A stretch of 63,877 bases of DNA, filler included, from Lenisia limosa (GCA_001655205.1; 18 parts of 18 records of this genome joined end to end with filler, not necessarily neighbours in it), one strand, 5' to 3'. Shown: positions 4,040 through 63,760, counted from the whole stretch's first letter. Numbers and translations: made by a program. The notes: generated by a model from the sequence alone, not told the origin.

Positions 4040-7000
4040 ATCAGTCAGCTGGGTCGTGGCCTCGGAGACTGCCGAGTTGTCGTCCTTAATACTCTCGACC
4101 GCCGTGACGAGGTCCTAAGGGGGGATGAAAAGAGGAAATTTATGAAGGTACAATTGGAAAATATCTGAATAATGGAAAACTTGAAACAATAAAAAAATAA
4201 GAGATATTGGATAGTATAATATTAATTTACCCAATCATTTGCCTTACAACTCTAAACACAAANNNNNNNNNNNNNNNNNNNNNNNNNNNNNNNNNNNNNN
4301 NNNNNNNNNNNNNNNNNNNNNNNNNNNNNNNNNNNNNNNNNNNNNNNNNNNNNNNNNNNNNNNNNNNNNNNNNNNNNNNTCAGTGTATATAATAGAGTAA
4401 TATATCATAATATATGTATAATACAAATGTAGTAAAGCAACAACACCCTCCCCTACTCTGACACAGGAAGTCACATTTCTGGAGTTCTTAGCCAGGTCAG
4501 TCTGTAGGGCGGATTTGTCGTTTGTGAACGGCATTTGACTGATCGCAGCAAGCATAGGCGTGAAGCTCTGGGCCAGGCCTGGGGGAGGGGGGTAAATAGG
4601 AAAATTTGTGAAAACACACACGCATAACAAAAGTAAAAACAGAATCCCCCCTTTGGACTTCATTTCGGTTCAAAAAAGATTGAATATCGAGATAAACCCT
4701 CTAAAACTACCAATATTTTAACGGTCTTTTTCGAACCGCCGTGGAGCACTATTCCCTACCCCTATTTTGCCATGTAAGGACNNNNNNNNNNNNNNNNNNN
4801 NNNNNNNNNNNNNNNNNNNNNNNNNNNNNNNNNNNNNNNNNNNNNNNNNNNNNNNNNNNNNNNNNNNNNNNNNNNNNNNNNNNNNNNNNNNNNNNNNNNN
4901 NNNNNNNNNNCTAAAAAAAAAACACACACACACAAACAAAATAATAATAATAATAATAAAAACGGAATGCTAACCGTCTAATGCACCCCCCCTTCTGACC
5001 GTCCACATGAGAAGAGAACTCGGGGTTTGACAGGAGAGCGGCAAAAGCGTCGGAAACAGCGCCGGAGAATGAGGAGAGTGTTTCGGCCTGATGGGCTTGG
5101 GAGCAGGACGCAAGGTTGTTGAGCTGGAAAATTAAAATTAAGGAAACAATTAAAGCCCAAAATGGTTAAACTAGATTTCTAATTTGTATTTTTTCTCTTA
5201 AAAAAAATAAAATAAAAAAAATATATATAAAAAAAAACTAAGGGTAAAATAGTAAATTAAAAACAATAGTAAGCAAGGTTGTTAGTTAAGCTGGTAAATT
5301 AAAATAAGGAAACAAATAAGCCCAAAATCAACTCTGTTGGCTGACAAAACATGAAGGTTGAAGGAATATTGGGCTGTAAACAATACAGTATTCCTTCACC
5401 AATATTCCTTGAACCACCCAACCCAATATCCTTACAGCAATAACTAGTTTCGTATTTCTTACACAAACTAAAAGTAAAATATCCCATGCATAAACAAAAA
5501 GAAGAAGAATAATATTCTTACACCAAACTAAAAGCATAATATTCCTGAAACTAAATGAAAAATACCAACCTGAGCCGCCATGGAGGCGAGGGACTTGGTT
5601 TCAATGACGATGGCGCGCGTCGACGCAACGGAATCGGCAGGAATGCGCGTNNNNNNNNNNNNNNNNNNNNNNNNNNNNNNNNNNNNNNNNNNNNNNNNNN
5701 NNNNNNNNNNNNNNNNNNNNNNNNNNNNNNNNNNNNNNCAAAATCAACTCTGTTGGCTGACAACACATGAGGGATAGAGATCAGAGCCCTTTCCACCTCA
5801 GCTTCCTTGAGGCTTGCCTTGAGTGCGGCGTCACCTTCGACAGCCTCGTCCAAAGCCTGAAGAAGGGGTTATAATAATAAAGGAAAAGGGGCTGAAGAAG
5901 GGGTTATATTAAAGGTAAGGCCTAATAAGGGTTATTAAAAGGTAAAAAGGGCGTTGAAAATAAAAGGTAGAAAAGACAACAAGGAAAAGGGGTGAAGAGG
6001 GGTTAACACGACTATAAGGAGACGTCATTTGGCTGAAAGGGTCGTTACAGCAAGTCAAAAGGGATTATTAAAACTGAACAAGAAGTTAAATAGTCCCCCC
6101 TCCCCCACGTCATTGAAAGTCTTCAAGGTAGTGCCAAGCTCAAGATGCGACTGTTCACTTGACAGGACGCTCTGAAGGATTAGGGGGATTACGCGAAAGT
6201 ATGGTAATTTGCTTATGTTACCCCTTTGTTTCCTTAGAGATCTAATGTAATATATTATTTCTCTTTTTCAAAAAAACAAAATAAAAGGAGGGGAATGAGG
6301 GTTGTTATTATGGATTATATTTTCCATTTGCAAATCTATCAAAAAAACAAAATACAAAATAAAAACACTAAACACCTGTGTGGTAAAGCACTAATTGTAA
6401 TATAATTGCTATCCCTCCCCCACCTGCATATGACCAACAGCCAGTTCGCAGGTTTGGGCCAGTTCGGTTGCTGTCCTGTTAACGCGTTGAAGGATACTGG
6501 CGTCGAGATGCGGGGCGGAACTGAGAACGCTGTAGAGGTTTTGTACCTGCCGGGTGAAATTGAAAAACAACAAAAAGAAGCTTAAATGCAGTAGTGTGTT
6601 TAATGATAGTTTTATTTCAGTTAAAAAAAGGACAGACAGCGATAAAATTTTTAAAAAAATTATGAAAAAAGCCACCTTATGCATGCCCATGATGGTGTTT
6701 CTATTTTTTACATGAACAGGGAGTGTTGTTTCTATCCTTTGCATGCACCATCTTGGACCCCCCTCTGACCTCTTCGGCCATCTTGGTAGAGGCATCCGCA
6801 TAACCTTCCTTATCTCCTGCAGCCAGGTCGAAGCAGGCTTGGAGGGACTGGGGAGGGGGGTGAAATTGGAAAATTTCTGAAATAAAAAGCCCAAATCAAC
6901 TCTGTTGACTCGACACACGAGGGTTGATAACAACANNNNNNNNNNNNNNNNNNNNNNNNNNNNNTCCTTACCTTGGCGTGTTTCCTCAAGACGTCGACAA

Positions 7001-10000
7001 ATACAGGTACGGACGTGAACGAGGCATCGATAATGGAGTCGCCAGAGAAGAGGGCCAGGGCACCCAGGTCGGTAATGACCTAATATGGTAAGTTGACGGG
7101 TTTCCTATTTGGGAAGCCGTGGCTGCTTCATGGTAATTCTATAATATATAAGATATGAGTGCGATTACTTTGNNNNNNNNNNNNNNNNNNNNNNNNNNNN
7201 NNNNNNNNNNNNNNNNNNNNNNNNNNNNNNNNNNNNNNNNNNNNNNNNNNNNNNNNNNNNNNNNNNNNNNNNNNNNNNNNNNNNNNNNNNNNNNNNNNNN
7301 NNNNNNNNNNNNNNNNNNNNNNNNNNNNNNNNNNNNNNNNNCACTTCAGCCATGCTGTCACGAGCGGTGGCGCAGGTTCTGAGACCCACCGCGCCGTGAG
7401 CAATGAGAGAGGAGACGGAGTTCGCCTAAAATCGTAAATTGCAGGACTCAATGAAATATATCAGAAATAGTTATAATAACAACACAAAGTGGGGTGGTAG
7501 TAAAAATATTTTAAAAAAATCAATAAATTTGCCCCAAAGATAGACCTCTCCCACTTCAGTGATAATAGCAGAGAACTTGTTCGGAATTTCAGCCTTCTTC
7601 TCAGCATCGGAATTGGCCAGGGCCTGGAGGGGGGGGGGTAAATTGGAAAATTTAAAAACAAAAAATTAAGCACAAAATCAACTCTTTTGGCTAACAACAC
7701 ACGAGGGTTGATACACAAAACATACAAAGCTCAGGCCAGTCGCTTCTGCAGCAACGCATCCCATCAAAATTGGCAAATTTACAAAAAAAAAAAAGCCCAA
7801 ATACGCCATACATAATTAACATATAGACAGAGCATCCCACACACCTGGTGAGAATGGACAAGGGTGTCTACCACGGCCTGGGACAGGGCCTTGAGAGCTG
7901 GAACAAAGGCACCGTCAGCCTGGATCGAACAGATCTCCGAGAAGAGAATGAAAATCTTCTTAGTCTGAATGCAGTGAGTTAGGGTGACTGGGGGTATCTT
8001 TTCGAGTCTATAACTAACATAATTTCACGATAGCACCATGATAAGTATATGTACTTGGACCACACCATTATTCTGCTACTCCAGTCATAAATTATTGTGT
8101 TTTTGTTTCATTTTTGATTCAAACATATTGTAATTGTCTACTTCACCGCCCTCTCACCTGGTCAGCAGCACTGAGCAGATCGCGAGGGAAGGTCACGTCT
8201 TCAACCTAGCAAACGGTGAGGTAAAATTCGAATTTGTTATTACCTCACAATCTCTCCAAGTGAGATGATTTGGGCTTTTCATNNNNNNNNNNNNNNNNNN
8301 NNNNNNNNNNNNNNNNNNNNNNNNNNNNNNNNNNNNNNNNNNNNNNNNNNNNNNNNNNNNNNNNNNNNNNNNNNNNNNNNNNNNNNNNNNNNNNNNNNNN
8401 NNNNNGAGAGCATAGAACACAATTCGGTGATGAAGAGTTCGGCCTGGGTCGCCACCACAAAGAACTGTCGCTTCTGTCGGGGTGATTAGAGGGGGTTTAA
8501 ATTTCTGTAAAAAAATAGACCCTGTTTTTTTTGGATAAACACCATGTTCAAAAACAACACCACCCTACGCTGGGTGTTGAGCCGAACGTTGGCAGCATTG
8601 ACTTAAGAGGCTCAATAGCAGCGGCAATGTCGCTAACAACATCACCGCCTTCACGGCAGCCGCGGATGGCCTTGTCAAACTGGGCTGAAAGATCTTTGGT
8701 ACGCGAGGCAAAGGTGGCTGAAGTTTCCTAATATGTTAAGTCGCAGGCCCAAATATAGAAGGTACCAAATATGGCAAGTCAGTGGTGTCATCTAAAATCA
8801 ATCCACTTTTTGAGGGTTTTGCATTTGAATGTAAGGATTTTGGGGCTCTTAAGATGGCAATTGTTTTGTCTGCCAATAATATGACTACTCACTCCTCTTC
8901 CAACCTGGGAAGATGGCAAGAGGGAGGCCAGGCGCACAAACTGCAGGATATCGGCCAAACCTTCAAGACAGTCCTGTGGGAAATTTCGATGAATATTGGC
9001 GTAAACGGTGAAATTGGACAATTTATGAAGCAAAAAAGCCCAGAATCAACTCTGTTAGCTGACAACACACAAGGGTTCAAACAAAGCTAAGGCCAGTCGC
9101 TTTGGGAGGTAGAGTTCAAACAAAGGGAGAGGGATAGAAAACATTATACGATATCGTATACTAATAACTAAGAATGGGGATACAAAGAATGCAATCTTCC
9201 CTGCAACCAACCTTGACAGCGTTACCAAGCTCTGTCGTGTTCTTCTGCAGCATATGCGGGAGAATGGTCACGGCAGATTTGAGCGGTTCAAGCAGGGCTG
9301 GGACCTCTTCCAGTAAAGTGGACTGCAGTTTGAGGGTCAACAGGCTGTTCTGCATGCCGGAAAGGGACGCGATAAACTGGGGGGGGGGGNNNNNNNNNNN
9401 NNNNNNNNNNNNNNNNNNNNNNNNNNNNNNNNNTTAATTAATTAANNNNNNNNNNNNNNNNNNNNNNNNNNNNNNNNNNNNNNNNNNNNCTTGAAGAGTG
9501 TTGGGGTGAAGCGATTGGGCTGTGGAAGGGCCAAGGGATGGAACGTCCACTGAATTTACCGAGGGAGCGACCGGGGGATGTGAGGGCCCGAGCGAAGGCG
9601 ATGTCTTATGAGGGGATGACTCGAAACTGGTGCGACTGTGAATACTGGCAGGTACGTTGCGACTGGGGGGAGGGGGTGGTGAGAAAAATTGGAAAACTTG
9701 AAACAAAAAAGCCCAAAATAAACTCTGTTGGCGGCTGAACATTAATCTTTTAAACAGGATCCGTTTCAATCAAAAAAACATGACCAATGCACGCCCATAT
9801 TGCATCCTATCGCTTATCCCCTCTCCACCTAGGAATCCTGGCAGGTGGTGGCGTATGCACAGACGCCATAAGCAGGTCAACAGACTGCAGGATTGTAGGG
9901 TGCAGCACGCATTCCAACGTGTCAACCTGGGGGGAGGTGAGGCTTTTGTGTGGCGGTACTATTGAATATATCATATGTGTCTCTTTAGCATACAGGAAGC

Positions 10001-11289
10001 AAGTCATATCAACAGGAAGAAACTCACAACGTACCCACCCCCCCGAACATGGGCAAAGGCGATTGTGTCGCACGCTTGTTGTGTCGGAACTGAGGCGCCT
10101 GCTATAAGGGGGATTGAATGTATGGACACTTTAGCTCGATTCTCCAAAATGTATAATGACAAAGGATCAAGGCCTCTATCCACACCATCACGCTCATCAT
10201 ATATCACAGAAATGAATTCTTTCAGAAGAATGTAAATGAAAGCGAAACCAGTTGAAATAGATATAAAGAATGGACGAAAAACACAGCATTTAAGCTCCCA
10301 AAACACAGCATTTAAGCTCAAAAAAAGGGATAAAAGGTCCTCTTTGACCGCCGAGNNNNNNNNNNNNNNNNNNNNNNNNNNNNNNNNNNNNNNNNNNNNN
10401 NNNNNNNNNNNNNNNNNNNNNNNNNNNNNNNNNNNNNNNNNNNNNNNNNNNNNNNNNNNNNNNNNNNNNNNNNNNNNNNNNNNNNNNNNNNNNNNNNNNN
10501 NNNNNNNNNNTCAATTGAAACGACCCCCCCTTCCCCTCACTCGCAGGTTGAGGTTGGCGAAGGCGATGACAGAGTCTTGAGGCGCAAGTGTAGGCAAATG
10601 TGCCAGGGAATTTGCGGCGGATATGAGCCTAGGGATGTAAGAGAACTGCCTTAGAGAAGTGAGAAATGACGCAGTCCCCATCATCTTGTTATCCTCGCAT
10701 CATATTCTTGTATTTGAAGAAATTAATTGATAAAATTTGAAATTAAAGTGTCTGAAATGGAGTTCACATGACAATAGGTCTCACGTCAAATTTGGCACAG
10801 AGCCTTAGTAATAAGGAACATTAGCCATATAGCAAATGAGAGAAACTACTTAGTGTGTACAACAATATCCCCCAATATTTGATAAGACAACATCACCTCC
10901 CTACTTGTGATTGGGGTCAAGGATGTTGACACAACCTCCGTCAAGCTTGAGAGAGAAGCTGGTTTTAACAAGTCGAGGCAACGACTGCGGGGAGGCCTGG
11001 CAGGAGTGAAAGAAGTGAGAGGGCAGTAGAATTGGAAAATTTATGAAACAAAAACAAAAAAGCCCAAATCAANNNNNNNNNNNNNNNNNNNNNNNNNNNN
11101 NNNNNNNNNNNNNNNNNNNNNNNNNNNNNNNNNNNNNNNNNNNNNNNNNNNNNNNNNNNNNNNNNNNNNNNNNNNNNNNNNNNNNNNNNNNNNNNNNNNN
11201 NNNNNNNNNNNNNNNNNNNNNNNNNNNNNNNNNNNNNNNNNNNNNNNNNNCCGGAGAGAACGGCCGAAAAGTCCACTGACATCTACCAT
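4040..11289 (-). CDS. Long alpha-helical rod protein (talin/vinculin-like composition), ~18 exons, 3' partial
   Basis: Amphipathic Ala/Leu-rich exons, e.g. LQSTLLEEVPALLEPLKSAVTILPHMLQKNTTELGNAVK (~9190-9375), ETSATFASRTKDLSAQFDKAIRGC (~8570-8725), SLQACFDLAAGDKEGYADASTKMAEEV (~6750-6847), DLVTAVESIKDDNSAVSEATTQLTD (4040-4114). Start at 11289 and continuity across the 9434 spacer are inferred; family assignment is weak. Confidence 0.55.
7624..7752 (-). repeat. Family A intron repeat, near full length, ending at the 3' splice site
   Basis: Reverse complement reads GCTGCAGAAGCGACTGGCCTGAGCTTTG...TCAACCCTCGTGTGTTGTTAGCCAAAAGAGTTGATTTTGTGC...AAATTTTCCAATTTA, then a C-run and TCCAG|exon. Other copies or fragments at ~4579, 5318, 5739, 6848, 9011, 9663, 10997, 23261, 27078, 35811, 37015, 62766, 63523. 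Confidence 0.85.
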
Positions 11290-11529
11290 GGATAAGTTCA
11301 GTTCAGTTCAGTTCAGTCAATACACTATGTATTACTAAGGACTCATAAAATATTCTTTTGATGGTGAAAATCAATAAAGAGGAAATTGTTAGGTAATAGT
11401 CTCATCATTTAAGCAAAATGTATTATCTTTTTAAAACTAAAGACTTCTAATTTTTACCCTTGATTGAGGAAAACACACACAAAAACAACACAAGACTCTT
11501 TTCAGTCGCAAATTCCCCCCCTCACCATT

Positions 11530-14500
11530 TGGTTGTTACATCTTTCGTTCAGGATTTGAACCACTGCACCAGGATGAAGATTGGGTAGGTATTTGGACTA
11601 GGGGGTGAAAGGGTTTTTAGTAGGGCTCTAATTGAAAAATTATTTGCCGAATTTGAGGTGAGACATTTGGTCATGGGAACTCCATTTCAGACACTTTAAC
11701 TTAAATTTGTGTCTATCAATTTCAAAATCAATTTACCGAGTCAAAAAAAAAACCTGAATTCAAGGAGAGTAGTCATGAATCTTCTTTATACCCCCTCACC
11801 TCCNNNNNNNNNNNNNNNNNNNNNNNNNNNNNNNNNNNNNNNNNNNNTTAATTAATTAANNNNNNNNNNNNNNNNNNNNNNNNNNNNNNNNNNNNNNNNN
11901 NNNGTGTACCCGCGTCCTTTTGGGTGAATAGTGGCAGTATGTCTCACATTTGACCTTCCAATTAGTGTTCATTATCTAAATTCACAACAACCTATTGAAT
12001 ATAACCCGCTACCGTAGTTTGTTTTCAGCTCAAGTGTTGTACCAGCAGCTCTGACCCTAGTCATCTGTATGGGTAAGAAAATGAGGTATGTCACTCAGAA
12101 GTGACACGTCATCAATAGTAATGGCCATCAGATTTTCGTTTGTTCAAAAAAGCTGGGTGTATTCTATTTGAGAATAAAACAGCCATCCCCATCCAACATG
12201 CATCATAAGCACCTCATCAGCCATCAAGTCCACCTCCTCAAGCAAATGTGTCGAATAGATAATCTGGAAAAGTTAATGCAAATTCGAAAAAACTGAAGAG
12301 GCAATGGCATGATTCATACCAAAGCGCCGCTGTCTCGCCTCTTTTTGATGACCGACCCGACAAGCTTCCGCATGGCCGGGTCAAGACCACTAAAGTGTAA
12401 CTTTGGCATTCAACGTGGCTTGCACTGAATCTTCAAAGCAAGGAAACCGCTGTTATAATTACCCGCTTCTCACCTGGCAGCCTCGTCAAACACTAGGATC
12501 TTGGGGTCACCCAGAAGAGCCAACCCAATAGAGAGCCGCCTTTTCATTCCTCCTGAGATTTGGTTGGAAATGGTCCATCAGAATAACATCATAGCACATA
12601 AAACAGAGGACCACAGATATTAGAGGGGGTCAAATACAGAACCTTTCGAAACCTCATAATACTATAATCCATCAAGAAGTAATTGAGAAGCAAACAGCTT
12701 AGATACTACCTACCCACCAGAAAGCTCCTTCGACTTTTTATCTCTGGCGTCTGCTAGCTCTACTTCACGGAGCTGGGCGGGTCAGAATAACATCAACAAA
12801 GACATTCATCATAGTGTGTTCGAATGCAACTAGAATTCAGACCATTTCCTCGGCAGCAGCGGAGGGGTCATCAAGGTTGCGGAAACGGGCAAAGAGAACC
12901 AAATGCTCATAACACGTGAGTGTTGGCCATAACTGGTCAAACTGGGGGCAGTAGCCCTGCGCTATTAGAATCCCAAGCGGGTTTAGTGGCTCAGGACTTT
13001 GGATGATTTGTCACCAAAAAGGACCCCCCCCCCCGGGCACAATTTGAGGAAGAACTGTTCCGGAGTGCGCCACCGGATTGTGTCCGGCAACAGTCACGGT
13101 TCCGTGTGTGGGCTTCAGGTTGCTGCAGTGTTATGATTCTTAGATTGTACTGTGATATGATTGGCTGCTGCGTCAATTTGGGAATCAAATAAATGATACG
13201 TATCTGAGATTCTCTACCCAGCTCCTACCCGCATATGAGGTTCAGCATTGTGGTTTTGCCTGCTCCATTTGGCCCAACAAGGCATGTGATATTACCCTTC
13301 CGGAACTCGTAAGAAACTTCAGCTACCTAGGTGTTGTAAATAACCTGCTATCTGATTTACAGTTCAATGAAAGAAGATTACGAAGGAGCATATTACGATA
13401 TTGTGTTCAACTTACGCCTGGGCTTTTCTTGTATGTTTTACTGATTTTCTGGAGGACAATTGACCCTCTGTTCAGACTTCTCAACCTGTGGAGTAAGTAA
13501 TTTACCACTTCAAGCCTGAAATTCAGATTAACACAAGCCCCATCAACCCAGCCAGAGCTCGGACATCGCCATCGATACTCTTCGGCGCCTTTGGGCCATT
13601 CCAGTAGCTTGGCTGCAGGAAGAAGAAGAGCGTCTTACCGGGAGACCCGTCCTTTTCTGAGAAATGAGAAGCAGTGGACTGTTGACATCAGACAACAGCC
13701 AAAAGAGTTCCGCCAAAAACCAACCATTTGCCACCTGGTGCAGATACCATGCCAGAAGCACATACATGAAAACTCCTGCGAAACCAAGGGCAAAGAGGAA
13801 CACTACACTGTTCACTTTTTTGCTGGTGATCTGAGACATTTTGGTCTAAGGTGTCAGGATAGATTTGAGAAATAAGGGACAGAAGAGAAACGCCTGCATA
13901 CCTGATCATTAGTGGTACATTGCTCAAACTCAAGGTCTTTGAAAAGATCCCAAAAGGAGAAATGACTCTGTGTAACTAAAAATGTGAGTAAATTGGACAA
14001 CAGCTTCTCTGATTGACTCCTCGACAATATTCAGCCTACCAAACTTCTCAACCAGACAATATTGCGGCTTGTAGACCGGTTTGTCAAAGTTTTGAAGGTC
14101 GAGAATTCTCTTAATACGCGCAGTCCTGGGGTAGAAGTGAATAATTGCGGAGTTCATCATCCGCCCCATGTTATTTATTCCTCATTGCTAAAAATAAACT
14201 TTATTGAAAGACGAGATCCCAAAATATGTCTATTATATTGTCGTATTTTTTAAAAAAGATATTAACTCCACTACTGTAACAACACAAGATGGTTTATACC
14301 CCCCACAGAAGTCCTGGTGAAATCATGGTCAAACCCTGCTGCATTGTTGTTGGGCTAGTGTTGAGTTCATCATAAGCTGGGAACGTCAGTTTCGGCGGAA
14401 ATTAATGAAATCGTTGCATCGCAAAACACACGTCCGCTACATCACACACTGCCCGGTCCAACCGTTGTTGCCGAAGAGAATGGGTTCGGTGGACTTGAAG

Positions 14501-22878: not shown

Positions 22879-25778
22879 GGAAGTGGAAGACTCCATTCCA
22901 AAGCCGCTACAGGACCCCTGGGAAATTGTCGAGCCTAAAAAGGGTAGGTTGATTTATTTGGGAAGTCATCTTACCGACTAGCCCCCCGGAGACCACGGGT
23001 ACTGTCTACGGACATTCGGAGCGGCGACCGGCAAGCCACACCCCAAGGCCTCCCCCAGCACACTGCGCTTGACGGATGGGGCGAAGTCATTACTGAAGAA
23101 GGCTCGGCCGCACTGGAATACGTTTTCCCCCTCGACCCTCTTGTGGGACGCTTTTCAGTGCACTTTGTCAAAGACATTTGCTTTTATTCATATTTTACAG
23201 GGTAATATATGATGTGTATCAGACCAATGTTCATAGTTATACTATGATATTCTGACTTCTCAACCCTCGTGTGTTACCAGCCAACAGACTTGATTTTGGG
23301 CTTCTTCTTTATTTTTTGTTTCATAAATAATCCAATTTTACTCTCCCTTCCCCCCAGGTCCAACAACACGTGCCGAGCAGTGCCGGGCTAATTGACCCAG
23401 TATCGGGACAGGTTATTACACTCGAAGATGAACTGCCGGTGGCTGGGGTCTTTGGAGTAGATTTTTCACTTGAACTAACTACAGTATCGTTGTACAATTA
23501 CTATATTGTATACTGTATTGAATATGATATAAACACCACAGGAAGATAGGGTTTCTGAGACTTAGACGATACTTTTCAATCCTTGATATATTCTATATTT
23601 AGGGGAGGGAGGGGGTGCCAGAGTGACATTCAGCTGCCACTCAACATTAACTCAATTTAGATTCTCAAGGGACCCGAAGACGCCAAGCCCCTCAAATCCA
23701 AGCCCAAGCCGGCTGATTTCTCGGCTATTAGAAGCCAGGTGGGTGAACGTCTTGTTTTGTCTTGCCTTGGTTCAACATTCGTTTTCGGCTTCGTTCCATC
23801 ATATAATATACCATATTATATGTAATATAATATATGGCAATGAGAAATAAAAACAAGGTCACACAGCTTTCTGCATGCCTCCCTAGCATACATCGTTCCA
23901 TCATACGGGTTCCTAATATTTTAGGATGGTAACCTGGGACTCCCTGTTAACATTTGCCGCATTGCGCCATCTTCCATCGAAGTAAAGCCCGAGGCCATAT
24001 GCGCACCTCCAAATATGGAAACTCGTTTGTTGGGTGTTGCCAGTTATGAAGTCCGTTCTAAGGTCCGTGTCTGACCTCCTAGACTATGCTGTCGATGAAA
24101 AAGCTCAGTCAGCTTGGGTCAAAATCCCAATCACCGATGTGGGAGGGAAATTGTTACCAAAAATTGAACAAAATAAGGTTCAAAATAAAAAAAACTCTGG
24201 GTTTCAACACTCATTCCTTAGGATGATGAGCCTCTACCCGCTGAACTAACGAAACCTTCTCCGCTCCCAAAGGTATTACGACTGCTTCTTGGGGGTTGTT
24301 TGCAGCAAGACAATATATTAAATAAATCCAGGCTAACATAAGAATATATAGGGATACCATGATCAAATCACCATAATGGGGCGCCTTCCCCTTCTTATGT
24401 ATTTCTGCTACTTTAGTACATAATATTCTCCCTATGGTGTTGACTTTTCCAGGTTCCAAAAACTAAACCCGCCTCGCATCAAGATACTGAGCCCACTACC
24501 AAGCTGCCTCCACTTCATCAGACAAAAACTGTGGTTCCTAACATGACGGTTCCTAAGGTTTGGAGGGCTGGTTGCCTGGGTACAGTGTTAGTAACTATGT
24601 GTTATAGACTATGGGGCGCAATGGTTGCCAGGAATATCATAGCATAATATTTAAATGAGAAATAGTTGGATAATGAGAACCCGTGATGGGTATCCAAATT
24701 TGAACCCCTCTTTACTGTTTAGAACTCCAATAGCATTCCGCTTCTGCAGCGTCCCAATATGTCCCCACAAAGACCCGTTGTTTCCTCGCCAGTGAGAAGA
24801 GTGACCCAGTCCCCCCAGAAGCCCAGGCCAACATCGCATGTCCGCCAATCTGCGTCATCAGGTGCGTGTTTCTTGTCACTCTGCGTCTGTCAAAAACCCA
24901 AACCTTTAGGCTTTCTCAGGTTCATTCATCGTACCAAACTGGAACTACCCACTTCTTTTACTCCCAATATTCTTCATCGAAATTCCTTCGTTTACCCCCC
25001 CCCCCCCNNNNNNNNNNNNNNNNNNNNNNNNNNNNNNNNNNNNNNNNNNNNNNNNNNNNNNNNNNNNNNNNNNNNNNNNNNNNNNNNNNNNNNNNNNNNC
25101 CGGTGCCGAAGCAGTCCGCTCGCCCGATCAGGTTTGATTATCTTTTTAACTTCATATCACTTTTTTTTGAGTCATTTTCACACGTATGAACTATGATATT
25201 CTACGTGATATGATACCTTAAATCACTTTTTGGATCATTTTCACACGTATGTACTATCATTTCCCACGCAGTGATATGATACCTACCTCATATCCACTTG
25301 TGATGACCGACAAGTAAACCCTCGTGCTATCTTGTGACTCGAATGTCAGTCACATGATTATATCAGTACTGCATATGATATGGTCAACCTGTAACAAGGC
25401 TTTTCTTACCCACTTAGCACACAACTTCCTCCCGAACAGAGGGCGCCAGCGCCACTTCTTGCGTCAACCAAACCCGGGTCTTATATTTCAAACCTCCAGG
25501 TACACTGGGGTCGTCTCATGAAATAGTTTTTTTTTTTGCTTTTTCTCGTTCTTTTTGGGTTGCCGTTGTTTTGAAGCTGACTCTGTAGTCTTACAGCGCG
25601 TCACAGCCCCTACAGCTTAACCCGGTGAGACAGACCCCATATTACTTTGCTTCCAAACTTCCAAACTAACTTTTTTTAGGCGAAAAAAATGCGCCAAAAC
25701 CCAAATCCCTCTGACGAAGAAATTGAAGACCAGAAGCGCTTCAAGCAAGCGAATGTTACCCTTCCCAGCCTTTTCTAA
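22879..25778 (+). CDS. Hypothetical low-complexity (Pro/Ser/Lys-rich) protein, 5' partial
   Basis: Exons EVEDSIPKPLQDPWEIVEPKK, VQQHVPSSAGLIDPVSGQ, GPEDAKPLKSKPKPADF, DDEPLPAELTKPSPLPK, RAPAPLLASTKPGSYISNLQ; last exon ...KRFKQANVTLPSLF* ends 25778. Confidence 0.6.
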
Positions 25779-26164: not shown

Positions 26165-29100
26165 ATGGAGGAGTTTTTCTGCTTTGACCGGCCAGGAAGA
26201 CCTGAAGTTGCCGCCTGTCATCGCTACTTTGTCTTTGTATGTATAATAATGGTTTTTTACTGCCCAAATACCCTATATAACGCTTTTCTGCAGAGCCAGT
26301 CCCTGATTCCTCCTTCAACTGCCGCCCACCGGAATGTACTGAATGGTGTTGCTTTTATTGGTAAGAAGCAATAACTTTTCAGGGAACCCATGTTACTTAT
26401 GAGCTCTCTGATGGGGTTTCATAGATGATCATTGAAATTGTTGTTTCCTCTCAGAGGAATGGAATGGAAGAAAAGAGTTTATGTTCCATGTGCCTTTTTT
26501 GGATGACAATGATATAATAACGAGCATATTTGCGAAGAATTGTTAGTTTATTTTCTGAGTTTCATGAGAGTCTGCCAAAGAGTGATGGCTTTTCAGGTCG
26601 ATTTGGGCCTCAATCGCAAGCTGGGGTCTTCAGGGTGCTGTCAACTGTACAAGTGGGGCGTTTGTCATATTGCAATCAAAGGGTAGATATTAATATTTTG
26701 TTCATGCTAATGCCCCTAATGAGATGGATGATTGCACAGGACGAGGACAGTGAGGTGTCGTTTTCGAGGCTCTCGTCAACCTTGGTGCCGGACTTGAAAG
26801 CGGCGAAGTGGATACAGGTTGTCTGGAAAACCTTGTACATAATCTTTTGGATTGTAAGTTATCTTTTCAGGTCTTTCCACCAGAAAATGTCAGCATTGAT
26901 GTCGAGGTTCATGCCTTCACCTATTGTGAACTGTGAGCGCCACATGTAGTGACACTTGCTCTTGCTTGATCAAAAATCTGAAATAATCTGAATATCGTGA
27001 AACAGGCACCCAAGTAACCCTCTCCAGGAATGACTCATTTGTCATTTTCGGGTCCGACAACACGGTCTTCTTTGTTGGTATGGGGGGGTAAAAATGAAAT
27101 ATTTATGAAACAACAAAATCAACTCTAATTTTTTACTGATTTTTGGTGAGCTCCATGAGAAAAAGTACTGAGGAGCTCTTTACCTTTGCGGCTAATATAG
27201 GCAGTATCCAACCAATTACCATTTAGACAGTAATGGTGATGCACACCTCTTTCCAATAAAGGCCAAAGCTGGAGTTCTGTTTGTTGAGGTTTCAGTTTTG
27301 TACTTTCAAACAGCGTTGTGCCAACATCATTCTCTTTATTCATTCTGTTACCGATTTAGTTCCTGTGATGGAAAGACATTGGCAGTGATATCCCCAGATT
27401 CTTCATTCGTCTCTTTTGTTGATGCAGAGCCTCCTGGCCGAAAGCATGATGTTGGCCGAATGGTGAATCCCAATTTGACAATTCTGAGAAGAAAATACTT
27501 TTTCCTTTTTGAACGCTTCGTTTACATAATTTAGTCGATTAATGCAGAAGAAAATTCCTCTTTTGGTGTTTCTGAAATGCTGATGGTTTGTCATTTCCTC
27601 ATACTATGAAATGTTTCTGACCTTTCAGGAGGAGTTCGGTAAGCAAGCGGAGGGTCACTGGAACGCTGGTTCTTCAGAATTTGCCTTCCTTCAGGTGGGA
27701 TTCTCGTGAATGACAGAAATGATCTATTTGTGTTATCTCTTTATAATTGTATGTTTTTGATGTTGTTGATTCACAATTCAGATGGATTCGCGGGATTGTT
27801 CTCTCATAGGTAAGAATTGTTTCCTGATTGGATTACATCCCTTTCACGAAGCAAGAAGGAAACGTGTACCCATTTCCGGGTCAATGCCTCCCTAAATTCA
27901 GCCTTGTGGTTGCTGACATGGAAAGGAGACTTAATATTCCTATTGTGGGTGGTTGACATTGTCTTTTTGTGCGTGTGAGGTGAATTGATTTCTCATTTCC
28001 ACTAATGCCTAACCAGATGGCGAGTCCATTTGAAATTACCTACATTGTGCAATACGGCTGGGTTACTGATAACATGTGAGACAGATTTCGGTGCTTTGAA
28101 GCATTTCCTTGTTTACACAGAACTAGTATTGTTTATATTATATATAGTATATATGATATATATACATACACTGTATATATATATATATATATAGTATGAA
28201 TAGTGTGGAGGGATTAGCCGTATTTTACTTGTCTTCTTTTGGAGACAGAAATGACTATTAGATTATTTGCAGTGCAGCTCTCACGAAACCACCGCGAGCT
28301 GATAATCGCTATTATTGACGTATCTGTAGGCCGGTACATCTTGGCATCTTTTGTGTGAAGAAATGACAAACCATCAATATTTCAGAAACACCAAAAGAGG
28401 CATTTTCTTCTGCGTTGATCGACTAAATTATGTAAACGAAGCGTTCAGAAGAAAATGAGCTAGAAATAAACTATCCAAAGCGGTACTAAAATAGTGGAAT
28501 TGGATTAGAATTGTACTCTTGATACCTATGTATGTATATATCCTTCACCTTGTTACCCCCAAGTTGGCCGAACTACGCTGGATTCCAGTTCTTCACACTT
28601 CTTCAACTTCTTGGATATATGTGAGCTTGGGCATTTACCTTTGACTATAATCCGCCAAAGAGAGTTTGTGACCTCTTAGCCTCCAACACACGTAACATTT
28701 CTATCTGATGGCAGACTTGTTACAACGTCGGAACACTCCGGCTTCCGACACATCATTGTTGTACATGCGGACGGGACAATCGGTTGGTGTGACCCAAGAC
28801 TTTTGTAATCCTGATAAACAGAATATTCAAATTTGACAAGAAACAAATTTTATTTCAATAGTGCTTCACTTTTGATTATAAAAAAGACAACGATTCGTAT
28901 AGTCTTTAATGTACTTGATTATAAAACATATAGTCTTCAACGTACCCATCGCTGTTGAACCCATCTCTTGTGGAAGGAAAAGAACTCCAATTCACAGCTC
29001 CAGATGATGTAACCAGTGGCCCTTTTGAGGTGACACACAACTTCCACGTCACTTCTCTGTCCAGTGACTCGCCTGGGGACTCGGAGGTGATCTTCTATCA

Positions 29101-33957: not shown

Positions 33958-36900
33958 AGGCAGCACCAGTGGCGCAGAGAGACCCGTCTCGACTCACAAA
34001 ACCAACTAAGGCTGAACAAATGCGTAAGAACGACTCGTCAAAGCCTGCTGGTTGGTTTGGTTGCCAAATGAGAGATATAACTTACAAGGACTAGGAAAGA
34101 AGATAAGAGGTACTATGTCTCATTTAGAGTGCGAAGAATGCAAAGAGAATCATACTACTTTTTATGTATCGTCAAACTGGGGTCTGGTTTATTGAAGTCT
34201 TGTGGAAGCCCTAACACTTTATTTTGGTCCTTCCCACTTTTACCACCCTCTTCACATATATGTTTTGATACCACATTTTCTAATAATATAGCTGGACCAA
34301 GAAACGTCTCGAAAGGCCTAGGCGGATGGGGAGCTGCAGAGGGGAGGTGGGGGGGAGTAAAGAATATTGGCGTGAAGGTACTAANNNNNNNNNNNNNNNN
34401 NNNNNNNNNNNNNNNNNNNNNNNNNNNNTTAATTAATTAANNNNNNNNNNNNNNNNNNNNNNNNNNNNNNNNNNNNNNNNNNNNATTGAATTCATGAAAC
34501 AAAATGGTAAATATGTTTGGGGGGAGGGGTGTTAACACTGTCCCTCGTATCTTCCATCACCTCATAAAACACCGTAATACAGCCCATCATCCCGTCACGC
34601 TTTAGTCTGAGTTTGAGGAGGCGGAAGTGACCGGAGACGGTTCAACGTCGCATCGCCGCAAGTGGCTCAAAAGGAAGCCTGGGGAGAAAGGTGGGCTGGA
34701 GTGATAGGTAGATTATTGAACTTTCAGTGTTGTTAAGGGGAAGGTACCGAAGACATCTTTAGAGAGAGAAATAAGAAGAAAACCATGGAAATTCTTTATT
34801 AGTGGGACCCCTGGCGATCCTAAAATCTCTGAAAAAAGAAGAAGAAAAACAGGGGGGGGGGGGGGNNNNNNNNNNNNNNNNNNNNNNNNNNNNNNNNNNN
34901 NNNNNNNNNNNNNNNNNNNNNNNNNNNNNNNNNNNNNNNNNNNNNNNNNNNNNNNNNNNNNNNNTATCTAACCTCCGTAGGTGCGGCTCCGCCACCAAAG
35001 GCGAAGAAGGTGTATCAATCTAAAGACCTCTTCAAATGTAGGCTTTTCTCATCGGAGTAAAAGGATGCGAAGATTTTGCCACCGAAGGATTTTGGGGGTT
35101 TTCCTTTTCCTTTATTGGGTTTTTGTGGGCACAATGCATGTGACCTGTTTAATATCTTCTATTATGGCCTTGCTTTCCACAGAAATTATATTATTTTCTG
35201 CTATTGCCTTGAGTTATTTCGTATTCTCTCACATTTCCAGTCACAAAGGTTCAAGCCGGTATCACAGAGAATGAGGCATACAAGTCAAGGGAAATCCACG
35301 CTCTCTACCGCTCAAACAGGAGGCATGAGTACGGGGGTATTAACTGTTGGAGACAATGATTTTATTTCATAAATACTGAGCAAGCTTCAGAGTTTATTTT
35401 CGGCTTCTTTTCAAGATCAATTCCGCCTTGCCCCCCTCCCCCGATGCATACTTTTTCTTAAAGAGAAATAATATACATTAGAAATCTTGGGAAACAAATC
35501 AAATGAATACATAGGGATACCATAAATAAATTTGCATACAAAGCCAGCCATTTTCCATTTTTCACCCCACCCCCACCCCCAGTGCGTCACGCATTCTCAA
35601 CTACGGATCTGGCTACGACCCGTTCGATGCCAAATGGCAGTATGGCGAGGACCAGCCGGCTCGGCCTTCCAAGGGGGCTAAGGGGAATGGTGGGAGGTAA
35701 AGGGTGACACGGGGTGGTAGTGGGTAAGGAATGACCGAAAAGGGCATCAATTCCTGCTAATATGACCTTTTCTTTTTGTCGTTACCCATCAGTTGGATGC
35801 GGTGCGTCAGAAGCGACTGGCCCGGGCTTTGTTTGTTTTGTTGTTTTTANNNNNNNNNNNNNNNNNNNNNNNNNNNNNNNNNNNNNNNNNNNNTTAATTA
35901 ATTAANNNNNNNNNNNNNNNNNNNNNNNNNNNNNNNNNNNNNNNNNNNNTTTGGGTGATCGAGCGGTGGGACTCTTCAAAGACTGGCTCGGTCTTGTTTT
36001 TGTTTTTATGTTTTTGTCATCTGGCCTTTGTCTAGTTTTAGCGTTGGTTGCTTGTGTTTGTTATTGCTTGTTTTTGTTTTTGTTTGGAGTTTCAGATTAT
36101 TCGGTTCGTGATTAGCACCTTTATGCCAATATTCTTAATCGAAATTTCCTTCGTTTTACTCCCCCCCCCCCCCNNNNNNNNNNNNNNNNNNNNNNNNNNN
36201 NNNNNNNNNNNNNNNNNNNNNNNNNNNNNNNNNNNNNNNNNNNNNNNNNNNNNNNNNNNNNNNNNNNNNNNNNNNNNNNNNNNNNNNNNNNNNNNNNNNN
36301 NNNNNNNNNNNNNNNNNNNNNNNNNNNNNNNNNNNNNNNNNNNNNNAGCCGGATAACACTGCAGCTCTCAGGAGAATGTGGGGGGATGGGGGTAGGGATC
36401 TTGAGTTTGCTGTTCTTCTTGTTGTTCTGTGTGTTGCTTCTTCTTCTTCTTCTTCTTTTTCTTCTTCTTCTTCTTCTTCTTCTTCTTCTTCTTCTTNNNN
36501 NNNNNNNNNNNNNNNNNNNNNNNNNNNNNNNNNNNNNNNNNNNNNNNNNNNNNNNNNNNNNNNNNNNNNNNNNNNNNNNNNNNNNNNNNNNNNNNNNNNN
36601 NNNNNNNNNNNNNNNNNNNNNNNNNNNNNNNNNNNNGCGGCAGCCGGGTGGACGGCGTCCTCAGCTGCCCCGAGATCCCGTTGATGCCTGAATAGTCCGG
36701 GGGGGTGTATTATTGTAGATGATAAAGTACATGATGTACATATATATATAGATATATATGTATATAATAGTATATGATATATTATATGACATGCATATAT
36801 TATATGATAATATATAATATACTATATGATATGATATATGTAGTATATGTAAAGGTGGGGGTAGAAGAGTATATAAACGCATGGGGGTGGGGGCTCTTTT

Positions 36901-37170
36901 TTCGCAGTTGTTATACCCCCCACCCTCCATCTTCGTTTTTATTAATAGTTATTCACAATCTTCATTTTTACATTTCTTCCCCGCTTCATTATAATATGAT
37001 ACCCCTAGCATCTTAGTTGATTTGGGCTTTCTTTTTTTTTGTTTCATAAATTTTCTAACTTACTCCCTTAGCATCTACCATCTGCGTCGATGTGCGCTCT
37101 TCAGCAACCTGGTGCAACACTCAGATGATATTGCAGCCCTGCGGACCACCTTTATTGCCCTACCTTATCG
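33958..37170 (+). CDS. Plus-strand exon fragments of one or more hypothetical genes across four scaffold pieces
   Basis: Exons AAPVAQRDPSRLTKPTKAEQM, SEFEEAEVTGDGSTSHRRKWLKRKPGEK, GAAPPPKAKKVYQSKDLFK, ASRILNYGSGYDPFDAKWQYGEDQP, IYHLRRCALFSNLVQHSDDIAALR. Confidence 0.4.
36437..36496. repeat. (CTT)n microsatellite running into a gap
   Basis: About 20 CTT units, one interrupted. Confidence 0.95.
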
Positions 37171-37197
37171 GTTCGAGGAGGGAAGCAGTATTAAAAC

Positions 37198-40640: not shown

Positions 40641-40873
40641 GGCTGTAGCTTTTCTTCTATTCGTGAATGCTGTGTTGGTGGTGTGACAAACCTTCAATTC
40701 TGACCCACGATATGAATTTTCTAGAAATGCTTGATAATCACAATATCTATTTGTCTATTTCGAATCAACATGAAGTTTTACGTATGACTGATATAAATCT
40801 CCTCGTCAACTGATGGGGTAAAAAAAAGTCATTACTAAGGGCATTACTACACCTTGTATAGTTTGAAGAGGGA

Positions 40874-41032
40874 AATGACCGGGAGAAGTCTTGTCCGATT
40901 TACCATGTGATTTCGTCAACGAAAATAGGTAAAGGCTACTCCCGGTCACTGTATGTATACATAAATTTATACACTTACCGCGATAAATGTTTATTTGAGT
41001 TAATCGTGCCAGGATTTATCATGGTTACTGTA
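40874..41032. mobile_element. Adjacent family E (40874-40953) and family D (40970-41032) micro-MITEs
   Basis: ..TGACCGGGAGAAGTC...CCCGGTCACTGTA, then TACACTTACCGCGATAAAT...GATTTATCATGGTTACTGTA. Confidence 0.7.
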
Positions 41033-55125: not shown

Positions 55126-56523
55126 CTAAGGGTGTCAATTTGTTGTAATAGTATCTCAAAAAGGACTGAATTTGTAGATAAATTCTCAATAAATATCGAT
55201 TGTTTCATGGTCTTTAACCCTACATATTACAAGGTACAATTTTACCCGCTTTTGTTTGGCCCCACAACTCGCGAGCGGATTTGGTCCAGTCTCAGTGATT
55301 TTTCAGTCAAAAATAACATGAGTCTTTTACCAACCCCCATAACTATTTACTTCCCTTCCACCCTCCCCCCAATATCTTTTAGCCCCTANNNNNNNNNNNN
55401 NNNNNNNNNNNNNNNNNNNNNNNNNNNNNNNNNNNNNNNNNNNNNNNNNNNNNNNNNNNNNNNNNNNNNNNNNNNNNNNNNNNNNNNNNNNNNNNNNNNC
55501 TGCACCTTGATCCTTCTCCACTAATGATGATCATATGAATAACGTTGGGGTTAAATGATCCTGGAGTGTTTATACACTGACTGTGAGCTTCATCATAAGG
55601 ATGTCTGGCCGAAGCCGTCCACTATCACGCTTATAAGAGATATTGGATTTTAGTATAATACTAATTCACCCAAACATTTGCCTTACAACTCTTGAACTAA
55701 GGCTCTGTAAGAGTTGTACGGCAAATGATTGGGTGAATTAATATGCCGGGGAGGCATGCAGAAAGCATATGTGCGATTGATTTTTTGTTTTGTTTAATAA
55801 AAAAAATTTTAAGTGAGCGAGAAAAAAAACAAAATATAAAACTCTTTAGCTTACTTTATCTACTCCTCCTGAGCAGGTAGATAAAAATAATTAAAATAGT
55901 CAAATTTATTTTTTTAACATGAAATTTTGACTTATTTGAACTAAAAAAAATAAAAAATCAATTGCGGCCTCAATATGCATCCCCTCCCCCNNNNNNNNNN
56001 NNNNNNNNNNNNNNNNNNNNNNNNNNNNNNNNNNNNNNNNNNNNNNNNNNNNNNNNNNNNNNNNNNNNNNNNNNNNNNNNNNNNNNNTGCGTGGCGCCTG
56101 ATCGTCTCCTAAACTGTCAAAAAAAGTTGAATATAATTGTCAAAAAGAGTTGGAAAAAAGGAACAGTTAAAATTGTCAAAAAAAAAAGGGGGGTAAACAA
56201 AATTGAATTTTTTTTTATTATTATTTGTATCAGGGGCAAAAGAATTCCACCCCTATAACATGATAAAGTATAATTANNNNNNNNNNNNNNNNNNNNNNNN
56301 NNNNNNNNNNNNNNNNNNNNTTAATTAATTAANNNNNNNNNNNNNNNNNNNNNNNNNNNNNNNNNNNNNNNNNNNNATAGAAACCTGATCCTTATGTCAC
56401 AACGCCAATATCGCTAGTGATTCTTATGCCACAAAGCCAATGTCGCTGGCTCCAACTACAAAGTCATGATGATATCACTACCTCTCCTCGTTCCGTCCCC
56501 ATCATTTCCCCCTAACGTATCAG

Positions 56524-60603: not shown

Positions 60604-62274
60604 ACCCCCCTCCTCTACTTCGGAGCCTCTGATGTCATCGAAGTTCTTTCCAATGAGGGCAGCTGGCTTAAGGGGTCTTCAAATGAAAGCTCCGGATGGT
60701 GAGGGGGGGGGGTAGAGTGTTTGAGTTGGCCCTTTTGGGTGTTTTGAGNNNNNNNNNNNNNNNNNNNNNNNNNNNNNNNNNNNNNNNNNNNNNNNNNNNN
60801 NNNNNNNNNNNNNNNNNNNNNNNNNNNNNNNNNNNNNNNNNNNNNNNNNNNNNNNNNNNNNNNNNNNNNNNNNNNNNNNNNNNNNNNNNNNNNNNNNNNN
60901 NNNNNNNNNNNNNNNNNNNNNNNNNNNNNNNNNNNNNNNNNNNNNNNNNNNNNNNNNNNNNNNNNNNNNNNNNNNNNNNNNNNNNNNNNNNNNNNNNNNN
61001 NNNNNNNNNNNNNNNGGCCCGGTCCAGTCCCAGATTTTTTAGAGAACCGGTCTGGTCCGTATCGGTCTGGTCCCAGATATTTGAACCAGTCCGGTTCCTG
61101 ATACGGGACCGGTCCGGACCAGTTCATTATACACAAAAGCTGTCAAAAGTGTACCAAAATGCTTCAAATCTATATTAAATACAAAACCCACATTGCTCCT
61201 ATTGTATTTTATATGCTTTATAATTGAGCAATTTATCACAAAAATACGACAATTATGACTTCTGTCCATCATCATTTTATGGAATTGAGATGTTCGAGTC
61301 TTGGTACTGCCATATTTTTTATTATTTTTCTGGATTTCTCTTCTTTTTGAGAGAACCGGTCCGGTCTAATATCCTTCATCGAAATTTCCTTTTTTACCCC
61401 CCCCCCCCCNNNNNNNNNNNNNNNNNNNNNNNNNNNNNNNNNNNNNNNNNNNNNNNNNNNNNNNNNNNNNNNNNNNNNNNNNNNNNNNNNNNNNNNNNNN
61501 NNNNNNNNNNNNNNNNNNNNNNNNNNNNNNNNNNNNNNNNNNNNNNNNNNNNNNNNNNNNNNNNNNNNNNNNNNNNNNNNNNNNNNNNNNNNNNNNNNNN
61601 NNNNNNNNNNNNNNNNNNNNNNNNNNNNNNNNNNNNTACAATAAAATATCAACCATTTCCCAACCGTTTGTGAAATAATATCCATTTCTTACCTACGTAG
61701 GCCCTTGCCCCGTACAACGCCCAAAATAAGTCCGAAGTCAGCCTTGTTGAGGTTTGCATCTGTAAACCCAGGTCCACCTCCACTCACCCCGCTTCTCAAC
61801 ATCCCAATATTGTAAAAATAGGAGACGATGTTGTAATTGCAGAATCATCAAGTATTAAGGAGATAAGGTAAAGAAGAGTCATATTTATTAAAAGTAGGAT
61901 ATATGTTGATAGTCAAGCTAAGAGTCGTAGTTATTAAGATCATAATCAAGACACCCCCCACCATTTATGGAAGACAAACTATTCTTTCTTCAAATTATAA
62001 TACTCTACGGAGCGACAACTTTGTATCTAGGGCTTCACTTCGGTTCGAAAAAAAGACTGGATTGCTCGATATTCCTCGAAAACTAAAGCCCTATTTATAT
62101 TTCGTGTTGTACTTGGGAATCTCAAAAATTCATTCGGAGTTCCATACCAACACCTACCTCAATTCACCTGCCACAGAAGGAAACAGTCACCATCCAAAAT
62201 ATGGTATCAGCGTCCCTGTTTAGGGTGGTGAAGTCGGATGGTTCGACCGGCCTTGTCCCTTTCGAGCTGTTGAA
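60604..62274 (+). CDS. Multi-SH3 domain protein, internal fragment
   Basis: LYFGASDVIEVLSNEGSWLKGSSNESSGW (60604-), ALAPYNAQNKSEVSLVE (~61700), KETVTIQNMVSASLFRVVKSDGSTGLVPFELL (~62178-62274). Confidence 0.7.
62028..62093. mobile_element. Family B MITE, internally deleted
   Basis: TAGGGCTTCACTTCGGTTCGAAAAAAAGACTG..AAAGCCCTA; flanks TTTGTATC / TTTATATT (6 of 8 identical). Confidence 0.8.
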
Positions 62275-62559
62275 NNNNNNNNNNNNNNNNNNNNNNNNNN
62301 NNNNNNNNNNNNNNNNNNTTAATTAATTAANNNNNNNNNNNNNNNNNNNNNNNNNNNNNNNNNNNNNNNNNNNNCTATATAGCAATGAGAAATAAAAAAT
62401 AAGGTTGTATCTGGTCGAATCCGTCCACACTATCATGCTTATAAGAGATATGGATTATAGTATAATATTAATTCACCCAAGCATTTGCCTGACAACTCTG
62501 TGGAACACAGCTTTCTGCATGCCTCCCCAGCATACATCTTTTGATAGATATCCCCCCCA

Positions 62560-63760
62560 TGATCTCTTACATGACCTTGGCAGACATTGGATTCTCTCTC
62601 ATCATGATCTCTAATCTTGACAGGGATCTCATTTTAGCCCAAGATAATCCTGTCCGCAACCACAAACACCCAATGCAACAGCCTCCCAGGTATGGAGTTT
62701 CTTAAGAAAAGTGAAGGATAATATTGTGAAACAATAAAACAAAGCAGCTATGTATGAGTATAATCTACGGGGCGACGGGGAGAGGGGAGTAAAATTGGGA
62801 AATTTCTGAAGCAACTCTGTTGGCTGACAACACACAAGGGTTGTTAACAACAAAACAAACACAAAAAACCGGGCCAGTCGCTTCTGCAGCAGGGTTATTA
62901 TTTATTAATAATGTGTATGGGGAGTGGGGGGAGGGATATGTGAAGAAAATTGACGGGTAATGAAGGAATTGATTTTTCAAAGGGGATGAAGGATAATGAA
63001 AGACTCAGTTTGTAATTAGTTACCTACGATTCCAAAAAAGACTGAATTTATTGATAAATCCTCGATAAATATCGATATTTCACCGGTCTTTTTGGGTCCA
63101 GAGTGAAGGCCCAGTTAATATGATTATCTCCTACGTTATATCATATATTCTTCAAAAATTCGTTCGTTTTACACCCCAAGATTGTTTTTCCCCCTCCCCA
63201 CTCCCACTAACCTCTCAGACCCCCCATCACCCCCCCTGAACCCGTGGGGCACCCCGGAGTCCTCACAGTCCTGTCCAACAAGGCAAGAATGTCATGGCCG
63301 ATGGGAGCACAAATGCATGATGATGGGAGCTCGCCCCTCCATGAGCCGACCATAGATCGGATTGCGGAGGAGCTGAAGAGAGTCTCTATTTCGTCGCTGG
63401 ATGATGGAGAGCCCATGCCAGACTTCAGGCCTCCTACAGTAACCACCCAGGTAATGATTTAATTCAAGACTTAGGCTTCTCTTCGGTTCGAAAAAAGAGC
63501 GAAAGAGATGAGAACTAAAATATGTTGTTATCAACCTTCATGTGTTGTCAGCCAACAGAGTTGATTTTGGGCTTTTTTTTGTCTCATAAATTTTCTGATT
63601 TTACTCCCCCCAGGACATCACCAACTGGGTTGAAGGTCGTTCCGGCATCCAGTTTGGCGTTGTGCGCATGCGTGGGCTTCCGTTCCAATGCACTACTGCG
63701 GATGTTTTGGCGTTCTTCCACCCCTACACACCCGTGCTCAGCGGCGTGTTTTTCATACAG
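62560..63760 (+). CDS. hnRNP F/H / ESRP-type quasi-RRM RNA-binding protein, partial
   Basis: In-phase exons ..HPMQQPPR|PPITPPEPVGHPG..RPPTVTTQ|DITNWVEGRSGIQFGVVRMRGLPFQCTTADVLAFFHPYTPVLSGVFFIQ; VVRMRGLPF is the qRRM hallmark. Confidence 0.8.
63523..63613 (+). repeat. Family A repeat forming the acceptor of the qRRM exon
   Basis: TCAACCTTCATGTGTTGTCAGCCAACAGAGTTGATTTTGGGCTTTTTTT..CATAAATTTTCTGATTTTACT, then a C-run and AG|exon at 63614. Confidence 0.88.

Follow-up and report, generated by a model that had tools for sequence, protein, structure and literature searches.

A dispersed repeat at the acceptors of unrelated introns in an intron-rich eukaryotic genome, tentatively read as an acceptor-targeted retroposon

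The window analysed here, a 63,877-nt stretch from Lenisia limosa (GCA_001655205.1), consists of 18 scaffolds joined by artificial spacers (58,915 called bases) and comes from an intron-rich eukaryote. It carries a dispersed repeat, designated family A, most copies of which lie at the 3′ ends (acceptors) of introns. A profile of 122 positions, built from seven seed copies, gave 30 matches in the window at E ≤ 5, and 14 of these scored 14.2–106 bits, above the best score (8.4 bits) obtained from 30 local Markov shuffles. The seven copies that were not used as seeds scored 14.2–43.2 bits and likewise exceeded this value. Family A, which an earlier note made from the sequence alone had described with at least 14 copies or fragments, is thus real and beyond chance. 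The element cores were 75–95% alike (mean 0.86 over 36 pairs; divergence of about 14%), and the layout ran from a GC-rich head via a T-rich linker, a conserved core and a T-run to a tail with TTTAC or TTCAC at its end. Our preferred reading, held tentatively, is that A is a non-coding, high-copy repeat that was inserted at existing acceptors as 5′-truncated, likely RNA-derived copies, which now form the branch-point and tract region of their introns. The observations on which it is built are the repetition of the family, its sense and acceptor bias, five spliced AGs, 3′ ends that are fixed while the 5′ ends are staggered, and unrelated donors.

Position was scored for the 12 copies with a visible 3′ end; those at 5739 and 35808, cut by a gap and a scaffold end, respectively, were left out. 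Nine of the 12 copies were in sense orientation and no more than 35 nt from a working AG, compared with 3.1 expected from random placement in the same introns (P = 1.3e-4); with strand included, the expected number of sense copies near an AG was 1.55 (P = 3e-7). Hairpin-forming miniature inverted-repeat transposable elements (MITEs) of families B, D and F in hand-curated introns served as position controls, and 1 of 11 lay within 35 nt of an acceptor (Fisher P = 0.003 against the 9 of 12 for A). The remaining three scorable copies were one sense copy at an unused duplicate acceptor (5273–5361) and two probably antisense copies (27078–27126 and 62765–62891), and over all 14 copies sense outnumbered antisense 12 to 2. 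For seven of the 12, the acceptor or orientation comes from gene models rather than from RNA, and the sample is small. These data bear out the acceptor association proposed in the earlier note. The seven positions named there (4579, 6848, 7624, 9663, 23357, 37071 and 63613) all mark a terminal AG, and the copies there, described as sense copies at acceptors, lie on the minus strand at the first four positions and on the plus strand at the last three, with RNA support at 4579, 6848 and 7624. They had been assigned to four different genes, but sit on five scaffolds.

Two public runs from one study match scaffold 2: X1, whose kind is not on record but which behaves like DNA and may be the source of the assembly, and X2, which is poly-A RNA. 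X2 contigs were compared with scaffold 2 only, and the RNA-supported acceptors all belong to one gene. One X2 contig joined 4578 to 5000 (with a 1-base ambiguity) and had an exon end at 5123, and the unshown stretches in two X2 contigs (80, 69 and 69 nt) equalled modelled exons ending at acceptors 6848, 7624 and 8974. Five acceptors in this gene therefore fit the RNA contigs, two directly and three by length, and A shares with introners the trait of removal by splicing at its boundary. X1 contigs crossed the exon-to-element junctions at 4579, 7624 and 8974, indicating that these links are present in reads. Two of six loose ends of X2 contigs displayed the 3′ end of A at other loci, both continuing into a C-run and AG, and the majority line of 27 X1 contigs at such a loose end had the AG signature too, with low agreement (0.41). 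A self-trained gene finder over-predicted exons, on non-coding scaffolds as well, and was used only as a guide, with reading frames checked by hand. With acceptors 9663 and 10997, a 202-aa frame stayed open across six exons of scaffold 3; with acceptor 63613, 145 aa were open across three exons of scaffold 18, and the exon from 63614 (63614–63751) matched hnRNP H/F/ESRP qRRM domains (best E = 1e-6). Acceptors 23357 and 37071 were assigned from a motif and a local open frame. The motif yTnAy was found at −25 to −6 in 10 of 10 A-bearing acceptors and in 22 of 31 hand-picked acceptors lacking A, and the stricter CTRAY in 2 of 10 and 10 of 31, respectively; from this sequence pattern we infer that the yTnAy of A probably serves as the branch point.

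In profile matches, every one of the 12 visible 3′ ends fell at positions 110–120 of 122, but the 12 visible 5′ ends were spread over positions 1 to 67. A common 3′ end combined with 5′ truncation is characteristic of short and long interspersed nuclear elements (SINEs and LINEs), and family A has this retroposon trait, with truncation of variable extent, although deletion could also generate it. Between the element core and the AG lay a tract of 9–34 nt that was different in every copy and consisted mostly of C-runs, contrary to the earlier idea of a C-run plus AG as the constant element end. Nor does A always bring the AG, since a family E segment intervenes at 9006 and a 28-nt tract unlike those of other copies at 11018. 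The absence of terminal inverted repeats (TIRs) stated in the earlier note was upheld, and structure was absent too: self-comparison revealed no inverted self-match inside the copies, and folding was no better than in shuffles in six of six copies (z = −0.57 to +0.34), on which ground a conserved hairpin core was rejected. No target-site duplication (TSD) of fixed length was detected in the intron duplication check. In this respect A is not TIR/MITE-like; families B, D and F, by contrast, gave self-matches in both orientations.

In ten A-bearing introns, 3 of 45 pairs exceeded the 95th percentile of shuffles over the first 40 nt and 41 of 45 over the last 60 nt, and the donor ends differed already from +3 to +6, so that the 5′ parts of the host introns are unrelated, as had been noted from the sequence. 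Introner surveys demand similarity at both intron ends and filter out secondary insertions (PMC9860276, PMC12130899). Family A is not an introner as such surveys define it, because likeness fails to reach both intron ends; intron 7844–7624 is one possible exception. Of 11 5′ junctions, 5 had a CTRAY within 20 nt or a YAG within 10 nt upstream, against a background rate of 0.196 (P = 0.046 with criteria chosen post hoc), with CTRAY just 5′ of the copies at 23260 and 5776 and YAG just 5′ of those at 9733, 35793 and 37015. Several 5′ junctions thus look like possible landings on an older intron end, and these old branch or acceptor motifs suggest that the introns were there first. The copy at 37071 has on its 5′ side an exact 8-nt repeat that takes in the AG and five exon bases, and A tails are stacked at 4115, 5124/5287 and 7767/7624. 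Of the two possibilities raised earlier, an introner-like or an acceptor-replacing unit, the second fits best, and intron creation is disfavoured by the old motifs upstream. Table 1 lists the copies together with the other repeats of the window.

Table 1. Family A copies and tails and other repeats in the window
Feature	Coordinates	Strand	Evidence
A copy, longest; used acceptor, AG 7624–7625	7624..7763	-	106 bits; 69-nt exon fits RNA gap; DNA contig spans exon and tail
Second A tail, immediately upstream of the 7624 copy, same intron	7767..7800	-	Self-match and alignment; 6.3 bits, inside null range
A tail, used acceptor	4579..4622	-	RNA contig joins 4578/5000; 14.2 bits
Degenerate A tail, used acceptor, without C-run	5124..5161	-	RNA exon end 5123; 84% match to 5273–5328; no profile match
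A copy with duplicated acceptor and exon start, unused	5273..5361	-	43.2 bits; 5110–5163 matches 5273–5328
A copy, 3′ end into sequence gap; CTGAT branch-like motif before it	5739..5776	-	33.1 bits
A copy, used acceptor	6848..6935	-	73.8 bits; 80-nt RNA gap fits
A copy (9008–9104), then family E segment with used acceptor	8974..9104	-	90.9 bits; E at 8979–9005; 69-nt RNA gap fits
A copy, 5′-truncated, inferred acceptor	9663..9733	-	31.2 bits; open 202-aa frame
A copy, then 28-nt non-A pyrimidine tract and inferred acceptor	10997..11072	-	23.0 bits; open frame
A copy, inferred acceptor; CTGAC just 5′ of copy	23260..23357	+	71.6 bits; next exon has weak plectin-repeat match below cut-off
Short, probably antisense A copy directly after G-run donor of plus-strand gene	27078..27126	-	18.5 bits; flanking plus-strand exons join, open 83-aa frame
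A 5′ part, begins right after acceptor-like CTAAT...CAG; cut by scaffold end	35793..35849	+	25.1 bits
Truncated A copy (37015–37061), TSD-like direct repeat over AG and first five exon bases	37004..37076	+	16.8 bits; 8-nt exact repeat
Near full-length A copy, own C-rich tract and AG, probably antisense, mid-intron	62765..62891	-	87.8 bits; plus-strand model open over 145 aa, stops in every frame of the minus-strand alternative
A copy, acceptor of qRRM exon	63521..63613	+	84.4 bits; hnRNP H match, E 1e-6; open frame
Three tandem A-like tails before acceptor, downstream of family C segment	4115..4196	-	Sequence; under null maximum
Family C, about 165 nt	62375–62545, 21543–21690, 32283–32375, 38803–38972, 55595–55744, 29828–29901, 4198–4259, 23835–23897		
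Family E, about 45 nt	24958–24997, 36121–36163, 61363–61399, 63136–63176, 8979–9005		
Families B/D/F, first group	20060–20157, 53820–53909, 4655–4747, 63024–63111, 37201–37284		
Families B/D/F, second group	21428–21504, 33361–33443, 40873–40955		
Families B/D/F, third group	20961–21041, 54792–54872, 19130–19198		
Inverted pair, 105 nt, 90% alike	27500–27604 / 28353–28455		Inside S9 peptidase-like gene
Tandem repeat, unit about 33–36 nt	33518–33857		

Many internal gaps and scaffold ends come after C- or G-runs, so C-run-type acceptors are under-counted, and the visible set of A copies may be biased because of the gaps after C-runs. X1 yielded 4,307 contig records over 5.4 kb of scaffold 2. Its summed depth, which is no copy number, was 26,250, 35,433, 99,666 and 11,363 in the four bins holding A, compared with 12–33 in unique bins, in line with thousands of A copies genome-wide.

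If A is an RNA-derived repeat inserted at existing acceptors, the C-rich, AG-ending 3′ end of its RNA would pair with the template strand of a host acceptor where that strand is nicked or broken, and a reverse transcriptase supplied in trans would copy the RNA backwards, often halting early and thereby truncating the 5′ end. Pairing with the template strand of the acceptor would account for the sense orientation, the occasional acceptor duplication and the re-insertion on earlier tails. The TTTAC or TTCAC end of the copy would then occupy the place of the branch point, with the old branch or acceptor motif staying upstream, and the final AG would be the host's own, a duplicate of it or that of the element. 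Family A would act as a SINE/retroposon with a splice-site-shaped tail, one that renovates introns and does not make them. Several points weigh against this account. The copies at 62781 and 27082 have internal deletions, and deletion could likewise stagger the 5′ ends. Rfam gave 0 matches at E ≤ 1 in 4008–11803, with no tRNA, 5S, 7SL or small nucleolar RNA (snoRNA) head, and the nine window stretches scanned gave no Pfam family, with neither a partner retrotransposon nor a reverse transcriptase seen. Intron 7844–7624 starts with an 8-nt match to the head of A (18 of 1000 shuffles; 1 of 10 introns), as expected of a whole-intron element. An AG-spanning repeat of at least 8 nt was present in only 1 of 11 A-bearing introns (39 introns examined), and a non-A intron has a 17-nt acceptor duplication (5857–5905, minus strand), indicating that duplications are not specific to A. 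In addition, the A copies are about 14% diverged, which would blur junction signatures. With these points taken into account, that A behaves like an acceptor-targeted retroposon, outside introners as defined, seems to us plausible to a degree slightly short of even.

A bolder version, which we regard as doubtful, is that A is a spliceosome-released retroposon and that the mobile RNA is the excised intron itself. The host gene would transcribe the acceptor copy, splicing would free an RNA with a C-rich, AG-ending 3′ end, and from this end the RNA would prime reverse transcription of itself at further 3′ splice sites. An intron-like end of the mobile RNA is suggested by the probably antisense copy at 62781, with a C-rich tract and AG of its own. 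Such an element would need no promoter of its own and would amplify with every new copy, and host branch-point regions would be overwritten in thousands of introns; a new intron would arise on the rare full-length landing in an exon, and families C and E would be parallel waves.

The converse history is unlikely: A would have begun as a complete intron, some 150 nt long, that gave rise to the introns now holding it, and selection would have preserved its branch and acceptor end as the 5′ parts disappeared or were exchanged. This view draws on the resemblance of the head of A to the donors of this genome and on the match at the start of intron 7844–7624, on the end-to-end alignment of family C with two introns that are candidate whole elements (5 and 12 of 500 shuffles for the first 35 nt), and on the sense bias and lack of TIR or TSD typical of some introners (PMC3879977, PMC9860276). 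However, the donor ends of the ten introns were shuffle-like even though the retained bodies are about 86% alike, and the old motifs upstream of the copies point to introns that predate them.

We also consider it quite unlikely that A is an ordinary short mobile element inserting anywhere, or at C/G runs, with sense copies that act as stray acceptors removed by selection and those at the real acceptor retained. The copy at 62781, lying antisense in mid-intron with an acceptor-like end of its own, and the copy at 27082, which adjoins a donor G-run, speak for it, and gaps after C-runs may bias which copies show. Nevertheless, selection alone predicts more antisense than sense survivors, opposite to the tally obtained. 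Furthermore, G-run donors are common (about 20 by eye among 113 C-rich runs) and only one adjoins A; a plain liking for C/G runs therefore does not explain the bias, and the same count led us to reject a model of whole introns as G-run/C-run TIR elements inserted either way. Copying between intron ends at the DNA level, by break repair or gene conversion primed at C-runs, would require neither an RNA step nor a strict element, and is improbable as well. Acceptor duplications with and without A, microhomology-like 5′ junctions, the occurrence of 6 of the 14 copies within one gene and the common pattern of families A, C and E favour it, but the 10 pairs of copies from that gene were no closer (pair identity 0.858) than the 26 remaining pairs (0.866), which argues against local templating, and every copy falls within a single fixed consensus, with none reaching into donor-locus flanks. 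A generic convergent splicing signal, the alternative already raised in the earlier note, is highly improbable: it holds for the last 10–15 nt only, where a C-run and AG also occur at 6 of the 31 acceptors without A, and is excluded for bodies that span 75–125 nt at about 86% identity, the more so as A was found in 0 of 14 examined introns of an ABC-transporter-like gene and antisense copies exist.

Among known systems, survey-defined introners are, like A, multi-copy and non-autonomous and lie at splice boundaries of unrelated genes, and some introner families have neither TIR nor TSD; unlike them, A reaches the 3′ intron end only (PMC9860276, PMC12130899). Introner pipelines would discard A because it reaches one intron end only. 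The introner elements of Micromonas share with A the sense-strand bias and the presence of copies buried in or merged with other introns, and an RNA route has been proposed for them (PMC3879977). There, whole introns outnumber the remnants (32 cases), whereas 3′-anchored partial copies are the rule for A, with at most 1 of 10 host introns that could be whole. Fungal introner-like elements and the sister introns of Hypoxylaceae are also close to A; they show no TSD-based transposition, degenerate over time and have been explained by RNA-mediated models (PMC3609843, PMC8469720), but they are whole introns with stable folds or symmetry. In snoRNA retroposons, intron-derived RNA is retroposed in trans, often sense in introns; their tails are A-rich, their TSDs measure about 14 bp, and the available text reports no tie to acceptors (PMC1687206). 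The tail of A, in contrast, is C-rich and ends in AG, no Rfam head was found, and 1 of 11 A-bearing introns has a TSD-like repeat. Elements of dinoflagellates recruit splice sites from TSDs (10.1101/2020.10.14.339549), and background on intron gain is given elsewhere (PMC5560861). A literature search that left subscription papers and the Micromonas supplementary figures outside its scope turned up no account of a high-copy repeat tied to acceptors already in place. Exact-motif scans gave 0 matches in metagenomes with a 23-mer and 0 in viral contigs, and no relative carrying A was found; 11 matches of a 19-mer in metagenomes were judged to be chance (unrelated flanks, best 16.4 bits with the seed included).

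Introner surveys that drop one-end repeats would overlook elements that appropriate existing acceptors, and A would be an unusual route for a mobile element to capture a host splicing signal. Direct evidence for RNA-mediated intron mobility has so far been scarce. If the bias reflects targeting, A would offer thousands of natural events for testing such mobility (reverse splicing, retro-insertion of excised introns), and branch points and tracts would be replaceable genome-wide without intron gain.

Families C and E look similar to A in pattern. In reverse, family C has a donor-like GTATG and G-run at its start and a T-rich tail and AG at its end, and 8 of 9 motif matches had an AG within 6–27 nt after the tail (putative acceptors). 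Two copies of family C match candidate whole introns end to end, and this family may be a true introner-like one, as judged from the alignments. In bin 4188–4367 its summed X1 depth reaches 28,485, again a very high value. Family E ends like A, in TTTTAC and a C-run; the C-run end was seen in four of five matches, three of them ahead of sequence gaps, and the segment at 8979–9005 sits between an A copy and the used acceptor 8974. Families B, D and F are self-complementary and MITE-like, and lie in mid-intron where checked.

The stretch 23143–23357, which includes the A copy at 23260–23357, holds another strong acceptor-like site some 60 nt 5′ of that copy, at 23200; it may mark a micro-exon or a displaced old acceptor. 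The sole tRNA in the window is a tRNA-Thr(AGT) gene (39581–39653, minus strand), away from the A copies. By eye, 45350–45800 resembles a decayed Tc1/mariner transposase; Pfam gave nothing on two stretches. Protein searches with single exons found no usable relatives; the scaffold-2 protein may be talin-like, and one exon in the window matches a peptidase S9 domain. Proteins of the hnRNP H/F type bind G-tracts; the window encodes a qRRM protein of this type, and many of its donors are followed by G-runs, for example at 6108, 6423, 11525, 14727 and 27078.

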